This document shows positions 42,488-52,029 of a DNA stretch of 64,000 nucleotides, one piece after another; within the stretch, counting starts at the first letter, position 1, and each line of letters begins with the position of its first letter. The notes under the pieces were generated by a model. It was not told the DNA's origin. It was given only the letters and a program-made list of their open reading frames with translations, and ran no database searches. The stretch covers positions 1,063,195 through 1,127,194 of the forward strand of contig CAVYJM010000006.1 of the NCBI GenBank assembly GCA_963768855.1, read 5' to 3'. The position numbers and the translations under genes were made by a program. This stretch comes from an uncultured Thermoplasmata archaeon (GTDB lineage Archaea; Thermoplasmatota; Thermoplasmata; RBG-16-68-12).

Positions 42488-42862
42488 TTATTCCTCCCGG
42501 CGTGGGAGATTAGGGAACACGAAGCGGGCCATGTAGAAGTGCCCCTCGAGCCAGAGCGCCACGACCAGCCCGATCGCGGTGACGGACCATCCCGCGACGC
42601 CCGGGATCAGGAAGATCGCTTCCGGGATCACGAGCAGGTCGACGAAGACGCAGCCCGTCAGGAACAGCGCCCGCAGAATCTCCATGCGGATGGGGACCGA
42701 CTGGGCGCGGCTCAGGAACCGCTGCCGACGTTGTTGGGCGCGGCGCACAAGGTAGCCGCTGATCGTCCCCTGCCGCTCCACCACGCCTTGGGGACGCGCG
42801 TCCTCGCGAGGCGCCTTCCGGGCCCGGAGGGGCTGGGCGTCCGGGGACCCTTCGTCGACCAT
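42488..42862 (-). CDS. Small 2-TM membrane protein
   Basis: Basic N-terminus, two hydrophobic helices; abuts oppF, probably co-transcribed. Confidence 0.55.
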   Translation of the reverse strand: MVDEGSPDAQPLRARKAPREDARPQGVVERQGTISGYLVRRAQQRRQRFLSRAQSVPIRMEILRALFLTGCVFVDLLVIPEAIFLIPGVAGWSVTAIGLVVALWLEGHFYMARFVFPNLPRREE

Positions 42863-44275
42863 TCAGGTCGGGGCCTTCTTCGCGGGAGCTTCGGGGCCGC
42901 CAAGGCTCTCGAGTCCCAGGTCCCGCGCCGTCGCGAAGCACGCGACCTGCCGTTCGTTCCCTGCATCAAAGAGCTTAGGTTCGATCGCCCGGCACGGCTC
43001 GAACGCGAGCCAGCAGCGCGGATGGAACCGGCATCCGGAAGGCGGGCGGGTCGGGCTGGGCACCTCGCCTTCGAGGATGATCCGCTCGATCTTCACACTC
43101 GGATCGGCGGAGGGGGCCGCGGAGATGAGGGCCTTCGTGTACGGATGCAGAGGTTCTCGGAAGATGTCCTCCGTATCCCCGACCTCTACGATTTTGCCCG
43201 CATACATGACGGCAACGCGGTCCGCGATGTGGTAGACCACGCTCAGGTCATGGGTGATGAAGAGGTAGGTGAGGCCCAGCTTCGTCTGGAGGGACATCAG
43301 CAGGTTCAGGATCTGGGCTTGCACCGAGACATCCAGGGCGGAGGTGGGTTCGTCGAGGATGATCACATCGGGATTGAGTGCGAGTGCCCTCGCGACATTA
43401 ATCCGCTGGCGTTGGCCTCCGGAGAATTCATGAGGGAAGCGGTTGAGGTGCTCTTTCTTCAGGCCTACGAGTTCGAGGAGGTCGAGGACCCGATGGGTCA
43501 CCTCTTCGCCCGTCACGAAGTGTCTCCGGACGACAAACAGGTACGCGAGGAGGAAGACCGACTCTCCGATTTGGATCAGGTTGGGGACGAGGGACACGGA
43601 GAGCACAAGATTCACTCCGGCAAGGATGGCCACCCCCCACCATGCCCACCCCTCGAGTCTCCACAGGCCTAGAGCGAACCAGACTAGCATTCCGCTGAAA
43701 GCTGCCAGGTAGAGTGCGAAGAGGATGGGGCCGAAAGTGAGAGCTCCGAGATAGGCCGCAACGCCTGCGACGAGGAGAACAAGCACCGCGAGTGTCACGG
43801 AAATGGCCGCCACGAGAGCCACGAGTCCGGCGAGGATTGCAACGCTCAGGGGCCGTGTCTCCGACCTCTGGTGGACTATGAGCGGCTCGGCGATGATGTT
43901 CTTCACAGTCATCCTCGGGTTCAGGGAGGACATCGGATCCTGGAACACCATCTGCAGGTGCTTCCTCTCGTCTCGAATGACGCGAAGTTTCTCCGAGGCG
44001 AGGTCGCGGCCCATGAAGAAGACCTTGCCTGCTGAGGGATCGAGGAGGCGGAGGAGGAGTCGGGCGAGGGTGCTCTTCCCGCATCCGGACTCTCCGACGA
44101 CCGCCAGCGTCTCCCCGCGATGCAACTTCAGGGACACACCGTCCACGGCCATGACGTGTCCCTTCACGGTGCGCAGCAGGCCGCCGCGGAGCGGGAAGTG
44201 CATCTTGACGTCCTCGGCAGCCAGCAGGACATCTTGGTTGGAGAGTTTGCCGGGTGCAGCCGAATCGGCGCTCAT
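42863..44275 (-). CDS. oppF: Oligopeptide ABC ATPase OppF with inserted 113-aa membrane domain
   Basis: [51 protein letters not shown]; insert 43517-43855. Confidence 0.9.
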
Positions 44276-45879
44276 GGAATCGTCGCTCCTGCGGGAACGG
44301 GGTTATGGCAGGCGACGAGGTGCCCGGGCTCCATCTCCTGCAGGGCGGGCATCGTCGTCTTGCACACATCGAGGGCCCTCGGACAGCGCGGATGGAAGCG
44401 ACAGCCGGACGGCGGATGGAGGAGGTTCGGCACGCTCCCGCGGATGATGTAGAGATCACGCTTACGGGCTTGCGCGCTCTCTCCCTTGAACCGCGGGATC
44501 GACTGCATCAGGCCGTTCGTGTACGGGTGCATCATCCGGTGGAACACCTGCTCGGTCGTCCCGAACTCCGCGATGTGACCCGCATACATGACCCCGACCT
44601 TGTCGCAGACCTCCGCCACGATGCCCAGGTCATGCGTGATGAGCAGGATCGCCATGTTCGTCTTCGCCTGGAGCTCCTTCATGAGCTTCAGGATCTGCGC
44701 CTCGACCGTGACGTCGAGCGCGGTCGTCGGCTCGTCGGCGATTAGGAGCTCGGGATTGCACGCCATCATCATGGCGATCATGGACCGCTGTCGCATGCCT
44801 CCGGAGAGCTCGAAGGGGTACTGACCCGCAATCCGCTCCGGCTCGGCGATTCTTACTTCCCGCAGCATGTCGACCGCCCATCGGACGCCCTCATCCTGGA
44901 GGCGGGATCGCACCAGGCGACGAAGGACGCGGACCGCGCCGATGAAGTCCACGAGTTGGTCGTACGGATCTCGGAGCATGCGCTCGTACAGCTTCTTCTC
45001 GGTGGACATGATGCGGCCTCGGAACGGGGCCCAGAGATCGAAGCTGAGTCGGGCCCCGCATGAGGGACAGCAATCCCACAGCCCGGGTGCGAGCGACCAG
45101 CACGCGCTGCATACGGTCTCGTCGTCCTTCAGGCTGAGCAACCGGCCGTAGATTCCCCGCTCCTCATCGGAGAACCTGTCGGGATTCCGGTCCCCGCGGA
45201 AGGAATCTCGCGCCTGCACCGCGGTCCGGCGGTTCCCTCGGACCTTCTTCTCGCGCGCCTTCATCTGAAGTTCGAGGGCCTTGAGCACGCCACGGCAGAG
45301 TTCTGGCTTCCGATGGAGCATGAGGGTTTCCGCGATCTGGTTCCCAATCGTGAAGACCGGGTTCAGAGCGGTCATAGGCTCTTGGAAGATCATCGAGATC
45401 TTGTTTCCCCGGATCCTCCGGATGTCTTCGACGGGTTTCTGGAGGAGGTCGAACTCGGAGGTGGCGGCCTGCAGCCGGCGCTCGATGTCGAGCTTCTCTT
45501 CCTCGGACTTCGCGGACGTGAGGCGGGAACGGAGCGTTTCGATCTCTGGCTTCAGCGCCTCCATGATTGGAAGGCTCGACGCACCCGCCTGCGCGTCCTG
45601 CCGGCGCAGTCGATCTAGGGCGAGGACATCGTATTCCTTGCGCAGGGCTCGGACCTCGTCCGGTTCGTCGAGGAAGACGCGCCCTGCTTCGATCGTTCCC
45701 GGAGGACTCGGGATCAGGCGGAGGACCGACAACGCCGTCACGGACTTCCCGCACCCCGTCTCGCCCACGAGCCCCACGGTCTCGCCCGTGCAGACTTCGA
45801 GGTCGATCGATTCGAGAGCCTGGACCGTCCCTTCGTAGGTGTGGAAGTAGGTCTTCAGACCCTCGATTCGGAGCACCAC
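44272..45879 (-). CDS. oppD: Oligopeptide ABC ATPase OppD with coiled-coil and zinc-ribbon insertions
   Basis: [47 protein letters not shown]; inserts ~45451-45669 and ~44890-45309. Confidence 0.9.
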
Positions 45880-45895: not shown

Positions 45896-46855
45896 TCACC
45901 TCCGGAGCCGCGGATCGAGGATGTCCCGGAGGCCGTCCCCGAGCAGATTGAACCCGAGTACGGTCAGCACGATCGCGATGCCGGGGAAGACCGACATCCA
46001 CCACGCGTTGAACAGATAGGTGAGGCCCTCGGAGATCATCACGCCCCACTCCGCCGTCCCCGGCGGCGCGCCGAGACCCAGGAAGCCGAGCCCCGCGGCG
46101 GTCAGGATGACGTAGCCGAAGTCCATGGAGGCCTGCACGATTACGGGTGAGACGGAGTTCGGGAGCACGTGGCGCAGCATGAGCCGTGTGGGGCTCGCGC
46201 CGACGCTCTTCGCGGATTCGACGAACTGCCTTTCCTTGATGGAGAGGACCTGCCCACGCACGAGCCGAGTGTACCAGGGCCACCAGGTGATGATGAGCGC
46301 GTACATCACGTGCTCGATGCTCCTCCCGAGGACCGCGGTGATCGCAATCGCCAGGATGAGGCTCGGGATTGAGAGGAAGATGTCCGTGATCCGCATGACC
46401 ACCTCCTCGATGACGCCTCCCTTGAACCCCGCGACCAGCCCGAGGAGGGAGCCGATCAGGGAGGCGGGGATCACGACCAAGAGGCCCACTTCCAAGGAGA
46501 CGCTGGCCCCGTAGAGGACCTTGCTGTACCAGTCCGTCCCGAAGTTGTCCGTGCCGAAGGGATGGGCCAGGGACGGTCCCAGGAAGACCTGGTAGTCCCC
46601 GGGCAGGTCGTGGAACTGCCAGCGCTGCTGGAGCTGTCCGTTGATATTCACATAGGTCGGTTGCTGGACGGCCAGGTAGGGCGCGAGGAACGCAATCGCG
46701 ACGACCAGCAGGATCAGGACGAGCCCCAGCACCGCGAGCCGGTTCTTCCGGAACAGGAAGAGGGTGTACTTCAGCTCAGAGATGCGCGAGGCATGGTCTT
46801 CGAGGAAGTCCCGCCACCACCCGCCCGGGGCCTGCTTTCCCGTCTCCACCGCCAC
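45896..46855 (-). CDS. oppC: Oligopeptide ABC permease
   Basis: HPFGTD, LYGA..SL, MRITDIF, FVESAKSVGAS, RHVLPN, LGFLGLG, NLLGDGLRD.LDPR. Confidence 0.93.
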   Translation of the reverse strand: MAVETGKQAPGGWWRDFLEDHASRISELKYTLFLFRKNRLAVLGLVLILLVVAIAFLAPYLAVQQPTYVNINGQLQQRWQFHDLPGDYQVFLGPSLAHPFGTDNFGTDWYSKVLYGASVSLEVGLLVVIPASLIGSLLGLVAGFKGGVIEEVVMRITDIFLSIPSLILAIAITAVLGRSIEHVMYALIITWWPWYTRLVRGQVLSIKERQFVESAKSVGASPTRLMLRHVLPNSVSPVIVQASMDFGYVILTAAGLGFLGLGAPPGTAEWGVMISEGLTYLFNAWWMSVFPGIAIVLTVLGFNLLGDGLRDILDPRLRR

Positions 46856-46856
46856 G

Positions 46857-47891
46857 TCAGGAGCCTCCCAGCCGCACCTGAGGGTCCGCTGCGGCGTACA
46901 GTACGTCGATGACCAGGTTCGCGCTCACGTAGAAGACGGTGACCACGAAGAGGTAGCCCAGGAGGTCCGTGAAGCCCGCGTGCAAGGCGGCCTGGAGGAA
47001 GTACTTCCCTATGCCGTTCCAACTAAAGATGCTCTCCACGTAGACGTCGCCCGCAAAGGCCGAGCCGACCGTGAGGCCCGCGACAGTCAGCGTCGCGTTC
47101 GTTGCGTTGCGGAACCCGTGGCGGAAGATGACGTCCCGTTCGGGGACACCCTTCGCTCGCGCCGTGCGAATATAGTCCTGGCCAAGGACCTCGAGCATCC
47201 CTGAACGGGTCATCCGCAAAATGATGGCGAGTTGCGCGAACCCCAGAGTGAAGGCGGGCAGGAGGAGGTGAGCGACCGCGGAGATGAAGTCCGTTAGGTT
47301 CAGTGCGAGAACCGAGTCGATCGTATAGAAACCCGTAACGGTTGGCGGGGGTAGCAGGGTCGGATCGAGTCGCCCATCCAGGGGCAGTATGTTCAGTCCG
47401 ACGACCGCTAGATTCTCGTGGAAGAAGATCTTCAGCATGATGCCGAGCCAATAGATCGGGATCGCGACGCCAAGGATCGCGATGAACCTCGAAAGGTGAT
47501 CTACCCACTTGTTCCGCTTCATCGCCGAAACGATACCAAGGTAGATGCCGACAGGCAAGGCGAACAGCATTGCCGCGATGGTGAGTTCTAGGGTCGCTGG
47601 GAGGAACGTGGCGAGATTGTCCAGCACCGGGAAGTGATTCACGAAGGACGGGCCCCAGTTGCCGGTCACGAGCCGTCCCATGTAGAAGAGGTACTGACTC
47701 GGAAGAGGATCATCGAGGTGCCAATCCGCGTGGAACTGGGCGATTTGTTCGGGCCTGGCTTTCGAGCCCAGGTAGGAGAGCGCGGGGTCGATGGGAATGG
47801 CTTTCCAGAGGACGAAGGCGATCACGGTTACGCCGATGATAACCGGGATGAGCGCGATGAGTCGCCGGACGACGTATTCCCAGAGTTTCAT
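46857..47891 (-). CDS. oppB: Oligopeptide ABC permease
   Basis: PIDPA, LPATLEL, RMTRSGMLEVLGQDYIRTARAKG, ESIFSWNGIG. Confidence 0.93.
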   Translation of the reverse strand: MKLWEYVVRRLIALIPVIIGVTVIAFVLWKAIPIDPALSYLGSKARPEQIAQFHADWHLDDPLPSQYLFYMGRLVTGNWGPSFVNHFPVLDNLATFLPATLELTIAAMLFALPVGIYLGIVSAMKRNKWVDHLSRFIAILGVAIPIYWLGIMLKIFFHENLAVVGLNILPLDGRLDPTLLPPPTVTGFYTIDSVLALNLTDFISAVAHLLLPAFTLGFAQLAIILRMTRSGMLEVLGQDYIRTARAKGVPERDVIFRHGFRNATNATLTVAGLTVGSAFAGDVYVESIFSWNGIGKYFLQAALHAGFTDLLGYLFVVTVFYVSANLVIDVLYAAADPQVRLGGS

Positions 47892-48081: not shown

Positions 48082-49794
48082 CTACGTCTTCTGGTAGAAG
48101 TAGAAGTTGTACCAGGTCACCGGGTTGAAGAAGAACCCTTTCATGTAGCTCTGGTAGATGGGTACGTACTGCTGTTGGCAGAACCAGATCATGTTGGGGT
48201 TCGCCATCGCGGTCGCCCAGACCTGCGCGTAGTCCGCCGCACGGGTGGTCGTGCTCAGCTCGGATCGGGCGATCGAGGCGTAGTGGTCGATCGTCGTGTT
48301 GGCGAAGCCCGTATGCCAGTAGTCCCCACCGAAGTCGGAACTCATGACCATCGGGGTCACATAGTCGTCGGCGTCGAGGTAGTCGAGGACCCAGTGCGCC
48401 ACGAAGAAGTCGTACGCAGCGGTGCTGCGCGCCGTGTCCCAGGCGTCGGTCGACGGCTTGATCTGCAGGTCCGTGTGGACGCCGAGGCCCTGCAGCGTGG
48501 TCTGGAACCGCCTGGCCGCGTTGGCTTCCTCGAGCTGTGTCCCATCCGCGACGATGCGGAATGCGTAGCCGCCAAACCGGGTGTTCCCTACCTTTGGATA
48601 GCCAGCTTGGTCAAGGAGCTGACCGGCCTTGGTCAGGTTCTGGTAGTAGTACTGGTGCTGCGAATCGAAGTACTGCATCCCAGCCGGGATGGGTCCAGGC
48701 AGGAAGCTCGCGAAGCCCGCGTAGTCGTTCGCAATCGTCGCGTTGTAGTCGAACGCGTAGGAGAACGCCTGCCGCACGAGGCGCCCCGAGGCGTTGTCGG
48801 CCATGTACGGGTTCGTCACGTTCATCGCAACAATCTCGCTCTTGATCGTGGTGTTCGCCTTCGCCACTACCCCCGACAGGCCCGTGACTTGGGAGACGGA
48901 CGAGAGCGGGAGGTCCGCAATGTCTGCGGCGCCCGTCCGGATCGCCTCGACGCGCGAGGTGGGGTCGCTCGTGAACTTCATGACGAGCGTCGTCGGCTCG
49001 GTCCCGTGCCATCCGCGCCAGAAGTGAGTGTTCGCATGCAATGTCATCTGGCTGCCTTTGATCCAGTCGGAGGAGCTCATGCAGTAGGGGCCCGTGCCCA
49101 TCGTGTTCTGCTTGATGTAGTCGTTCGCGATGTAGTGATGCACGCCTCCGTGCGCCTCAATCCACGCGCCCTCCATGATGGAGGAGGGCTCCACCGTGGC
49201 AAGCGTCACCAGGAAGGCGGTGTACGGAGCAGTCAGGTTCATCTGAATCGTGTACGTGTCCTTCACCCAAAGGGATCCCGGGAGGTTGTTGGGGTCGAGG
49301 GTCTGGTTCAGAATCCACGCGACTCCCGATTCCGGCGAAGCCTCGAGGAGAACCTTGCGGAAAGAGGCGTACACATCGTTCGCGGTCAGGTTGTTGCCGT
49401 CACAGAACTGGACACCCTGGCGGATGTGGAATGTATAGTTGAGTCCGTCCGCGGAGATCCCGCCGTTCGCCACGGTGGGGACTTCCGAGGCCAGGTCCGG
49501 CACGAGCGTGGTCGTGTCCTTGTTGTAGCCGAGCAGTGTGTCGTAGGTATTCTGGAGGGCGACGAACGACCAGAGGTCGTACGCGTCCGACGAATCCATC
49601 GTCACGGGCTCGGACTGCATGTAATAGACGAGTGTGCTCGTGTCTCGCGTGGCTGCGGGTCGCGTGATCACGTATGCGACCGCTGCGATAATGACGATTG
49701 CGACGACCGCGATGATTGCCCACAGCCGCCACCCCATCCCACGCTTCGCCGGCGGTCCGCCGGGCGGCGGGGATGCACCTCCTCCTTCTGCCAT
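48082..49794 (-). CDS. oppA: Oligopeptide ABC substrate-binding protein with N-terminal TM anchor
   Basis: YDTLLGY, YTFHIRQGVQF.DG..LTA.DV, MGTGPY, VRQAFSYAFD. Confidence 0.92.
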   Translation of the reverse strand: MAEGGGASPPPGGPPAKRGMGWRLWAIIAVVAIVIIAAVAYVITRPAATRDTSTLVYYMQSEPVTMDSSDAYDLWSFVALQNTYDTLLGYNKDTTTLVPDLASEVPTVANGGISADGLNYTFHIRQGVQFCDGNNLTANDVYASFRKVLLEASPESGVAWILNQTLDPNNLPGSLWVKDTYTIQMNLTAPYTAFLVTLATVEPSSIMEGAWIEAHGGVHHYIANDYIKQNTMGTGPYCMSSSDWIKGSQMTLHANTHFWRGWHGTEPTTLVMKFTSDPTSRVEAIRTGAADIADLPLSSVSQVTGLSGVVAKANTTIKSEIVAMNVTNPYMADNASGRLVRQAFSYAFDYNATIANDYAGFASFLPGPIPAGMQYFDSQHQYYYQNLTKAGQLLDQAGYPKVGNTRFGGYAFRIVADGTQLEEANAARRFQTTLQGLGVHTDLQIKPSTDAWDTARSTAAYDFFVAHWVLDYLDADDYVTPMVMSSDFGGDYWHTGFANTTIDHYASIARSELSTTTRAADYAQVWATAMANPNMIWFCQQQYVPIYQSYMKGFFFNPVTWYNFYFYQKT

Positions 49795-51651: not shown

Positions 51652-52029
51652 ATGACCGCGCCCGGCTATGTCCCGAGTCCGAGTCGTCCCATCGGCGTCG
51701 CGATCTTGGCCATCCTCGTCATCCTGGTCGGCGCCTTGTTCCTCCTCGGCGCGCTCGGACTCCTCCTTCTAGCGGGGTTCGCCGCAATCCGGGGGCTGCC
51801 GACGTTCTTCGGGCTCACGGGCGCGTTCCTCGGCGTGGTCCTCCTTATCTTCGCGTTCATCTTCATCGGCGTGGGCCTGGGCCTCTGGCGTTTGCGGAGC
51901 TGGGCCTGGTGGCTCGCCATCATCGTCCTCGTGCTCGACATCATCGGGAGCCTCGCGGACCCGGTCGGACTCGTCATCCCTCTCATCCTGCTGATCTACC
52001 TCGTCCTCGTCCGTCAGCACTTCCGTTAG
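51652..52029 (+). CDS. Small 4-TM protein homologous to the OppF insert
   Basis: RPIGVAILA...GLWRLRSWAWW...IYLVLVRQHF; ATTATATA box upstream. Confidence 0.8.
   Translation: MTAPGYVPSPSRPIGVAILAILVILVGALFLLGALGLLLLAGFAAIRGLPTFFGLTGAFLGVVLLIFAFIFIGVGLGLWRLRSWAWWLAIIVLVLDIIGSLADPVGLVIPLILLIYLVLVRQHFR

Follow-up and report, generated by a model that had tools for sequence, protein, structure and literature searches.

Introduction

In ABC importers, the helical subdomain of the ATPase is the lever that passes ATP binding to the membrane subunits, and known importer regulation acts mostly via C-terminal domains. The closest described relatives of the system reported here are the solved PepT-family importers, namely DppBCDF (8z1v) and OppBCDF (8z21) of E. 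coli, OppABCD (8j5q) and DppABCD (8wd9) of M. tuberculosis, and DppD of T. tengcongensis (4fwi). These were compared with an oppA-B-C-D-F operon in a 64,000-nucleotide stretch of DNA from an uncultured Thermoplasmata archaeon, hereafter the window. Common to all are the ABC core, the oligo_HPY region with four [4Fe-4S] cysteines, the operon order and the coupling-helix glutamate. In contrast, the solved importers have no extra residues at two sites of the ATPase, where ~9 and 21 residues stand against 142 and 93 in the window OppD, and their translocators have no sixth subunit.

Inserts between Q-loop and signature are known from other ABC proteins, including the Rad50 zinc hook and coiled coil, the UvrA zinc modules and the ABC-F arm; some have a CxxC zinc site or a partner-contacting helical hairpin. 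No homology between these and the OppD insert was detected, and the predicted OppD ribbon, a Cys4 site within one chain, is borne on a short stalk instead of a long coiled coil. The OppD and OppF of Mollicutes (NF043079, 561 positions; NF043078, 649 positions) are also oversized, with extra sequence before the signature helix, and neither window OppD insert, searched alone, matched these models. Accessory subunits are known from MlaFEDB, in which MlaB is bound to the MlaF helical subdomain, and from LptB2FGC, in which a membrane helix of LptC lies beside the permease. Their likeness to the accessory-subunit action proposed below is by analogy only; neither is related in sequence or fold to the window system, and neither is a binding-protein-dependent importer. 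Our literature search turned up no publication describing a zinc ribbon in an importer ATPase or such an insert, and no solved structure with such an OppD insert was found.

The OppD Gene and Its Operon

The operon runs from 49794 down to 42863, with oppD as its fourth gene:

48082-49794, minus strand, oppA, of ordinary length
46857-47891, minus strand, oppB, of ordinary length
45896-46855, minus strand, oppC, of ordinary length
44272-45879, minus strand, oppD, PepT-family ABC ATPase of 535 aa, its stop overlapping the oppF start
42863-44275, minus strand, oppF (470 aa), whose loop equivalent to OppD insert 2 holds a ~4-helix membrane insert (about 43511-43870)
44308-44403, minus strand, C-terminal Cys493, Cys499, Cys506 and Cys524 of OppD, spacing 6/7/18

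Domains, motifs, C-terminal cysteines and operon all identify OppD as a PepT-family (Opp/Dpp) importer ATPase of the OppD/DppD type. Pfam found ABC_tran (PF00005, 3.8e-21) and oligo_HPY (PF08352, 3.9e-19), both above their cut-offs, and the structure search returned 4fwi_B (Z 19.8). Walker A, Q-loop, signature, Walker B and H-loop (ITHD), read from the sequence, are all intact. The C-terminal cysteines form a predicted cluster site, since their spacing is identical to that of the [4Fe-4S] ligands of E. coli DppD, C284/290/297/315 (6/7/18; PMC12136057). NCBIfam ranked its OppD model NF007010 first, with 311.9 bits spread over three separate stretches; the score falls below the curated cut-off of 575 because two inserts break the match.

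The host genome (G000) holds ~27 PepT-type ATPase reading frames, which corresponds to roughly 13 peptide-type importers in 2.9 Mb. Within family f1, an insert 2 query (E ≤ 1e-6) matched 3 of 43 other genomes, many of them incomplete; this operon therefore looks patchy or accessory.

Position and Properties of the Two OppD Inserts

Insert boundaries were set by alignment to M. tuberculosis OppD (8j5q_D), in which residues 3-58, 152-190 and 333-525 of the window protein align with 5-60, 82-120 and 130-318 of the reference. This left the following features:

45427-45705, minus strand, insert 1, residues 59-151, 93 residues against 21 in the reference (about +72 aa)
44884-45309, minus strand, insert 2, residues 191-332, 142 residues against ~9 in the reference (net gain ~133 aa)
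45328-45330, minus strand, codon of E184, invariant, equivalent to E. coli DppD E114
45130-45243, minus strand, linker of insert 2 (residues 213-250), length-variable between orthologs (~0 to 70 aa), almost neutral

The sequence-only reading of this DNA had described an OppD insert of ~140 aa after IAETLMLH, at the same site as the insert of OppF. The alignment bears this out, with the same coordinates and flanking words and a length of 142 residues, and both inserts directly follow a conserved ..(L/V)H(R/Q). Insert 1 is a second insert that the reading lacked. It is placed between the strand that follows Walker A and the one leading to the Q-loop, is predicted to form a bundle of three to four helices and has a net charge of -5.

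E. coli DppD 80-120 aligns ungapped to residues 150-190 of the window OppD, so that DppD E114, which forms a salt bridge to DppB K243 at the coupling helix (PMC12136057), corresponds to OppD E184. Insert 2 starts six residues past E184, in the loop between the first two helices of the helical subdomain. The membrane domain of OppF sits at the equivalent loop on linkers of only ~7-10 residues, and this loop must therefore lie within membrane reach.

Between close orthologs, dN/dS was 0.07-0.13 for the core, 0.17-0.30 for insert 1, about 0.10-0.20 for insert 2 without its linker and 0.2-0.9 for linker residues 211-250, all of these being rough values since dS was 1-2, near saturation. The conservation of insert 2 outside the linker is thus not a matter of chance. 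Its conserved core is helical and consists of the flanking extensions of core helices with LYxRM, then DPxD, then RR; Y298, R320/R321 and the cysteines discussed below are invariant or nearly so across family-level divergence. Insert 2 is basic, with a net charge of +8 in the window and +6 to +16 across 10/10 orthologs, while insert 1 ranges from -5 to +4 among ten. Trp makes up 2.46% of insert 2 versus 0.27% of the rest of the protein in the close family, a ninefold enrichment.

AlphaFold2, run with a 24-sequence alignment, gave pLDDT of ~80-95 over most of both inserts and modelled the ABC core poorly, owing to the shallow alignment. In insert 2, core helix 178-188 is continued by helix 192-210. 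After a linker that contains short helices come short strands around the cysteines, then helix 284-303 and helix 317-341, the latter leading straight into the next core helix. Insert 2 is thus predicted to form a helical stalk tipped by the ribbon. The hydrophobic moments of its helices are modest (0.02-0.40) and their mean hydrophobicity is negative. Residues 57-346 modelled alone reached a mean pLDDT of 75, and no fold match to the insert module was found by Foldseek at E ≤ 0.001 with the inserts modelled alone. The best VIA match of the module was YqeY (Z 6.9), which lies over insert 1 and is generic for helices; ESM Atlas returned nothing usable for the insert, and the whole OppD model matched ABC ATPases only. 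An intein or mobile-element origin of the insert found no support, as Pfam detects no such domain in it.

A Predicted Zinc Ribbon in Insert 2

Insert 2 contains two CxxC knuckles with a short hairpin between them, the arrangement of a Cys4 zinc ribbon:

45058-45111, minus strand, Cys4 motif C257-x2-C260-x10-C271-x2-C274, predicted zinc ribbon

A search restricted to insert 2 yielded 23 close homologs, all OppD-like and 48-96% identical over the insert; in the alignment of these 24 sequences, window included, C257, C260, C271 and C274 are invariant. They are likewise invariant in 9 distant orthologs from other genomes of the same class (eight at 21-31% insert identity, one at 59%), bringing the total to 33 orthologs, and 9/9 of the distant ones retain both OppD inserts and the operon order. 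Conservation of the cysteines, on which the sequence-only reading had made its proposal depend, thus holds at both distances. Its motif, CSAC-x9-CCPSCG, was right in position and in the four conserved cysteines; the first C of its 'CC', Cys270, is Tyr or Trp in other sequences and does not belong to the site.

The Pfam family DZR_2 scored 16.2 bits against the insert, below its cut-off of 27, which leaves the insert outside this curated zinc-ribbon family. The insert profile matched only zinc-ribbon proteins in the PDB, weakly and via the Cys knuckles; the best was PolD DP2 (4.4e-5), with further weak matches to bL32, eL40, eL43, reverse gyrase and RadA. We infer that the ribbon binds zinc as a structural staple.

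Two lineages speak to its role. In L191 (f29) and L160 (f33), alignment from Q-loop to signature showed the ribbon segment to be missing, with the rest of insert 2 and the operon kept. Both retain the first-helix extension and the distal part (Y..Y/LY..M, DP.D, IP.LRRY) as in ribbon-bearing relatives. Loss of the ribbon alone favours a structural staple over a sensor, and it speaks against metal or redox sensing as the core role, which the sequence-only reading had suggested.

A zinc hook of the Rad50/SMC kind was also considered and rejected: such a hook consists of a long antiparallel coiled coil whose single CxxC is shared by two chains, whereas the insert helices span only ~20-25 residues and the Cys4 site is intramolecular. 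SMC_N gave only a sub-threshold match to OppD, of the kind common to ABC proteins.

Distribution of the OppD Insert and Its Relation to the OppF Insert

Searched alone against 1.84 billion representatives, insert 2 gave three matches, all OppD-like. Its profile, run against 5.8 billion proteins with 8000 candidates scored, gave at least 26 matches, again all OppD-like, and where source names were given among these, all were Thermoplasmata or Methanomassiliicoccales. A phylum-wide search with the insert profile was swamped by generic zinc ribbons; among the matches listed, those of full length all came from the window's own class.

The OppF membrane insert is present in the window, in genome G354 and in 10/10 metagenome loci with visible oppF, whose OppDs are 68-98% identical to that of the window. 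Outside this subclade the two inserts part. Families f10 and f28 keep the OppD inserts beside a canonical OppF of 335 aa; in f29, where the inserts are also kept, the sole OppF insert is small, helical and located at the insert-1 site; the OppF of genus g2 has a C-x3-H...C-x2-C motif at the insert-2 site and, at the insert-1 site, a helical insert containing hydrophobic stretches that resemble membrane helices. In the sister genus, OppF at L020:5275-7002 (minus strand) and L023:1815-3596 (minus strand) shows a long helical insert with such stretches at the insert-1 site, the C-x3-H...C-x2-C motif at the insert-2 site and, within the C-terminal domain, an additional segment that the partner OppD in these loci has too.

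This nested distribution indicates that the OppF membrane insert arose later, inside a single subclade, and that the OppD insert is older; the OppD insert is therefore independent of that of OppF. Co-evolution of the two, as first proposed, describes the close subclade, in which they always occur together, and fails in f10, f28, f29 and g2, where the OppD insert is found with a canonical or different OppF. The inserts are thus distributed independently in three other families and g2, an outcome that the sequence-only reading had itself named as speaking against its proposal. Its view that both ATPases are elaborated at the helical subdomain by the coupling contact is supported, the loop being the same in both.

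In a tree of OppD cores with the insert columns dropped, 12/12 zinc-ribbon OppDs fell into one 14-member clade (SH-aLRT 94), which includes two members without ribbon. The zinc-ribbon insert may have a single origin followed by losses.

A membrane domain at this loop is not confined to OppF. P0024, an OppD homolog of 667 aa, has a ~4-helix membrane domain in the insert 2 linker (residues about 225-355), and a GLxLWRLxGWA motif is common to this domain, the OppF insert and a free gene at 51652-52029 (blastp E 1e-4). When P0024 served as query in a scan of metagenome contigs, the matches were generic bacterial OppDs, and its own contig was not among them; an earlier contig scan was empty.

Insert Sites in Paralogs of the Host Genome

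Both sites are hot spots of insertion in this lineage, as the host genome shows. Two further OppD paralog groups have C-x2-C-x10-C-x2-C at the insert-2 site, another OppD paralog has a Cys-free helical insert of ~230 aa there, and one has a large insert 1 only. At least five OppF paralogs bear hydrophobic inserts with several predicted membrane helices at the insert-1 site, between Walker A and Q-loop:

G000 C6:767024-769321, OppF-type paralog with membrane-helix insert
G000 C11:277393-279261, OppF-type paralog with membrane-helix insert
G000 C21:107558-109783, OppF-type paralog with membrane-helix insert
G000 C23:1387-3366, OppF-type paralog with membrane-helix insert
G000 C24:22534-24564, OppF-type paralog with membrane-helix insert

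The contig pairs C21/C22 and C23/C24 carry nearly identical Opp operons, which could reflect a duplication or two strains in the bin (contamination estimate 7.7%). In-frame OppC-OppD fusions were seen at L031:1916-4270 (minus strand; G000 C21, also C22), L194:650-2965 (plus strand; G040) and L159:924-3431 (plus strand; G354), and the ATPase part of these fusions has C-x2-C-x10-C-x2-C at the insert-2 site.

A Small Membrane Protein Gene Linked to the OppD Insert

Directly after the oppF stop lies a sixth gene:

42488-42862, minus strand, small gene of 124 aa, its ATG directly after the oppF TGA (TGAATG)

The protein is predicted to have two membrane helices flanked by a basic N-terminal tail of ~58 aa and a short tail at the C-terminus; no Pfam family matches it. 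By tblastn, the gene was found at the same place in 10/10 metagenome loci with oppF and in G354; two f10 loci gave weaker matches. Judged by position and architecture, it also occurs in other f10, f29 and g2 loci, beside an OppC-OppD fusion paralog of the host and in L048, and it follows oppF in every insert-selected locus with visible downstream DNA. We consider the gene real, given its dN/dS of 0.18-0.48, its conserved position and the public annotation, which calls the same 124-aa protein.

To extend this analysis across the class, a profile was built from 19 small proteins of insert-type operons; divergent small genes beside canonical operons could therefore be missed by it. Of 401 genomes searched in the class, 45 contained the family. 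Among 40 small-gene loci fetched, 38 adjoin an Opp operon, with the gene directly downstream of oppF in 29 and divergent from oppB or oppA in 9, so that the linkage outlasts rearrangement; the remaining two are orphans. Small genes with no Opp gene in the fetched stretch were observed at G000 C6:375812-376057 (plus strand) and in L165 and L170.

The spacing from Q-loop to signature is 91-313 residues in 30/30 OppDs beside the small gene, which were sampled by that gene, as against 53-57 in canonical OppDs. The ribbon is present in 14 of these 30 and absent from 16, and no change in the small protein correlated with its presence or absence was seen. No small gene was found beside any of 14 canonical OppD systems (0/5 in the host genome and 0/9 in three other genomes, each with one insert-type system that does carry it). 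Zinc-ribbon OppDs with no small gene nearby are a contig-8 paralog of the host genome (L030) and the OppC-OppD fusion L194 (G040).

The small gene is conserved beside insert-type Opp operons in at least eight families of the class, and these patterns indicate that it is a better co-varying partner of the OppD insert than is the OppF insert. Insert-bearing OppDs form approximately one clade; the co-occurrence may therefore partly reflect shared descent, and the counts are not independent events. Extra cytoplasmic tails on OppB and OppC that would match the inserts were sought, and none was found.

Discussion

Sequence comparison settles that insert 2 is a real, selected and lineage-specific module beside the coupling interface of a competent OppD. 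As to its function, we hypothesize, with a probability of roughly 45%, that insert 2 docks the sixth subunit and/or the membrane surface and that the ribbon is an optional structural cap. The helical core of insert 2 would be a platform that holds the OppD helical subdomain near the membrane. For this it would bind the small two-helix protein at its cytoplasmic tails, rest on the membrane surface, or both, and the helices of the small protein would pack beside OppB. In the window subclade, a covalent form of the same tether would have arisen in OppF through splicing of a membrane domain into the corresponding loop; in P0024, OppD itself carries such a domain.

Several observations lead to this proposal. 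Insert 2 lies six residues after the counterpart of DppD E114, the partner of DppB K243, in a loop placed near the membrane by the OppF and P0024 membrane domains. Its basic charge and Trp enrichment are conserved, its sequence is under purifying selection, the ribbon is dispensable while the helical core is kept (L191, L160), and the small gene is linked to an enlarged OppD insert site. Against it stand the basic charge of both insert 2 and the N-terminal tail of the small protein, the two zinc-ribbon OppDs without the small gene (L030, L194), the three orphan small genes, the absence of matching extra tails from OppB and OppC, and the shared descent that may partly underlie the co-occurrence. 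A further step, which we regard as doubtful, would make the importers of this Thermoplasmata clade six-subunit machines, in which the small protein binds the OppD insert and tethers or gates the motor, and the OppF and P0024 inserts are fused versions of it.

Other explanations account for part of these data. Insert 2 could be a structural buttress, a basic, Trp-rich arm resting on the inner membrane face or on OppB, with the small gene an unrelated trait of the clade. Its conserved positive charge and Trp content, the closeness of the loop to the membrane and the two ribbon-bearing OppDs without the small gene would all fit, but its helices have the modest hydrophobic moments and negative mean hydrophobicity given above, and the small-gene linkage is tight and survives rearrangement, which makes a mere buttress rather unlikely. 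The original proposal of a co-evolved regulatory pair, in which the Cys4 site senses metal or redox state or touches the OppF insert, agrees with the constant pairing of both inserts in the close subclade (window, G354 and 10/10 metagenome loci), with the cysteines invariant there, and with the redox sensitivity that PepT ATPases already possess via the C-terminal [4Fe-4S] cluster (PMC12136057). It is at odds with the OppD insert occurring beside a canonical OppF in f10 and f28 and beside other OppF variants in f29 and g2, with the persistence of the operon and the remaining insert after loss of the ribbon in L191 and L160, and with knuckles of the CPxCG type, which match structural zinc ribbons. 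A sensor role or a partnership with the OppF insert is accordingly less likely than a docking platform, and we hold it to be improbable, although it may apply within the close subclade.

Soluble ABC ATPases hold partner-binding inserts in the same topological region, and a basic insert with a zinc ribbon could in principle receive a soluble partner, such as a regulator or peptidase, or nucleic acid, in the manner of the ABC-F arm or the UvrA zinc modules. Yet the ORF lists of Opp-like and small-protein matches contain no conserved extra operon neighbour but the small gene, and the PDB profile search matched zinc-ribbon proteins only, by their Cys knuckles, so that we give such a dock little credence, marginally less than the regulatory pair. 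That the insert is a tolerated, functionless insertion in a permissive surface loop might be suggested by the variety of inserts accepted at both sites in the host genome and by the almost neutral evolution of the linker; purifying selection outside the linker, and cysteines, Y298 and R320/R321 that are invariant or nearly so across families, render this highly improbable.

Together, our results describe a conserved module, predicted to be folded, which lies beside the coupling-helix contact and travels with the gene of an unannotated sixth membrane protein. For annotation, this means that insert-type OppDs fall below the NCBIfam OppD cut-offs and that the sixth gene has no family. This module and its linkage to the small gene, along with ATPases whose corresponding loop bears a whole membrane domain, suggest a manner of anchoring or tuning an importer motor that has not been described so far. 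The system is a compact one in which the effect of restraining the helical subdomain on coupling could be tested. If the six-subunit reading is true, it would represent accessory-subunit control of a type I ABC importer at the coupling interface.
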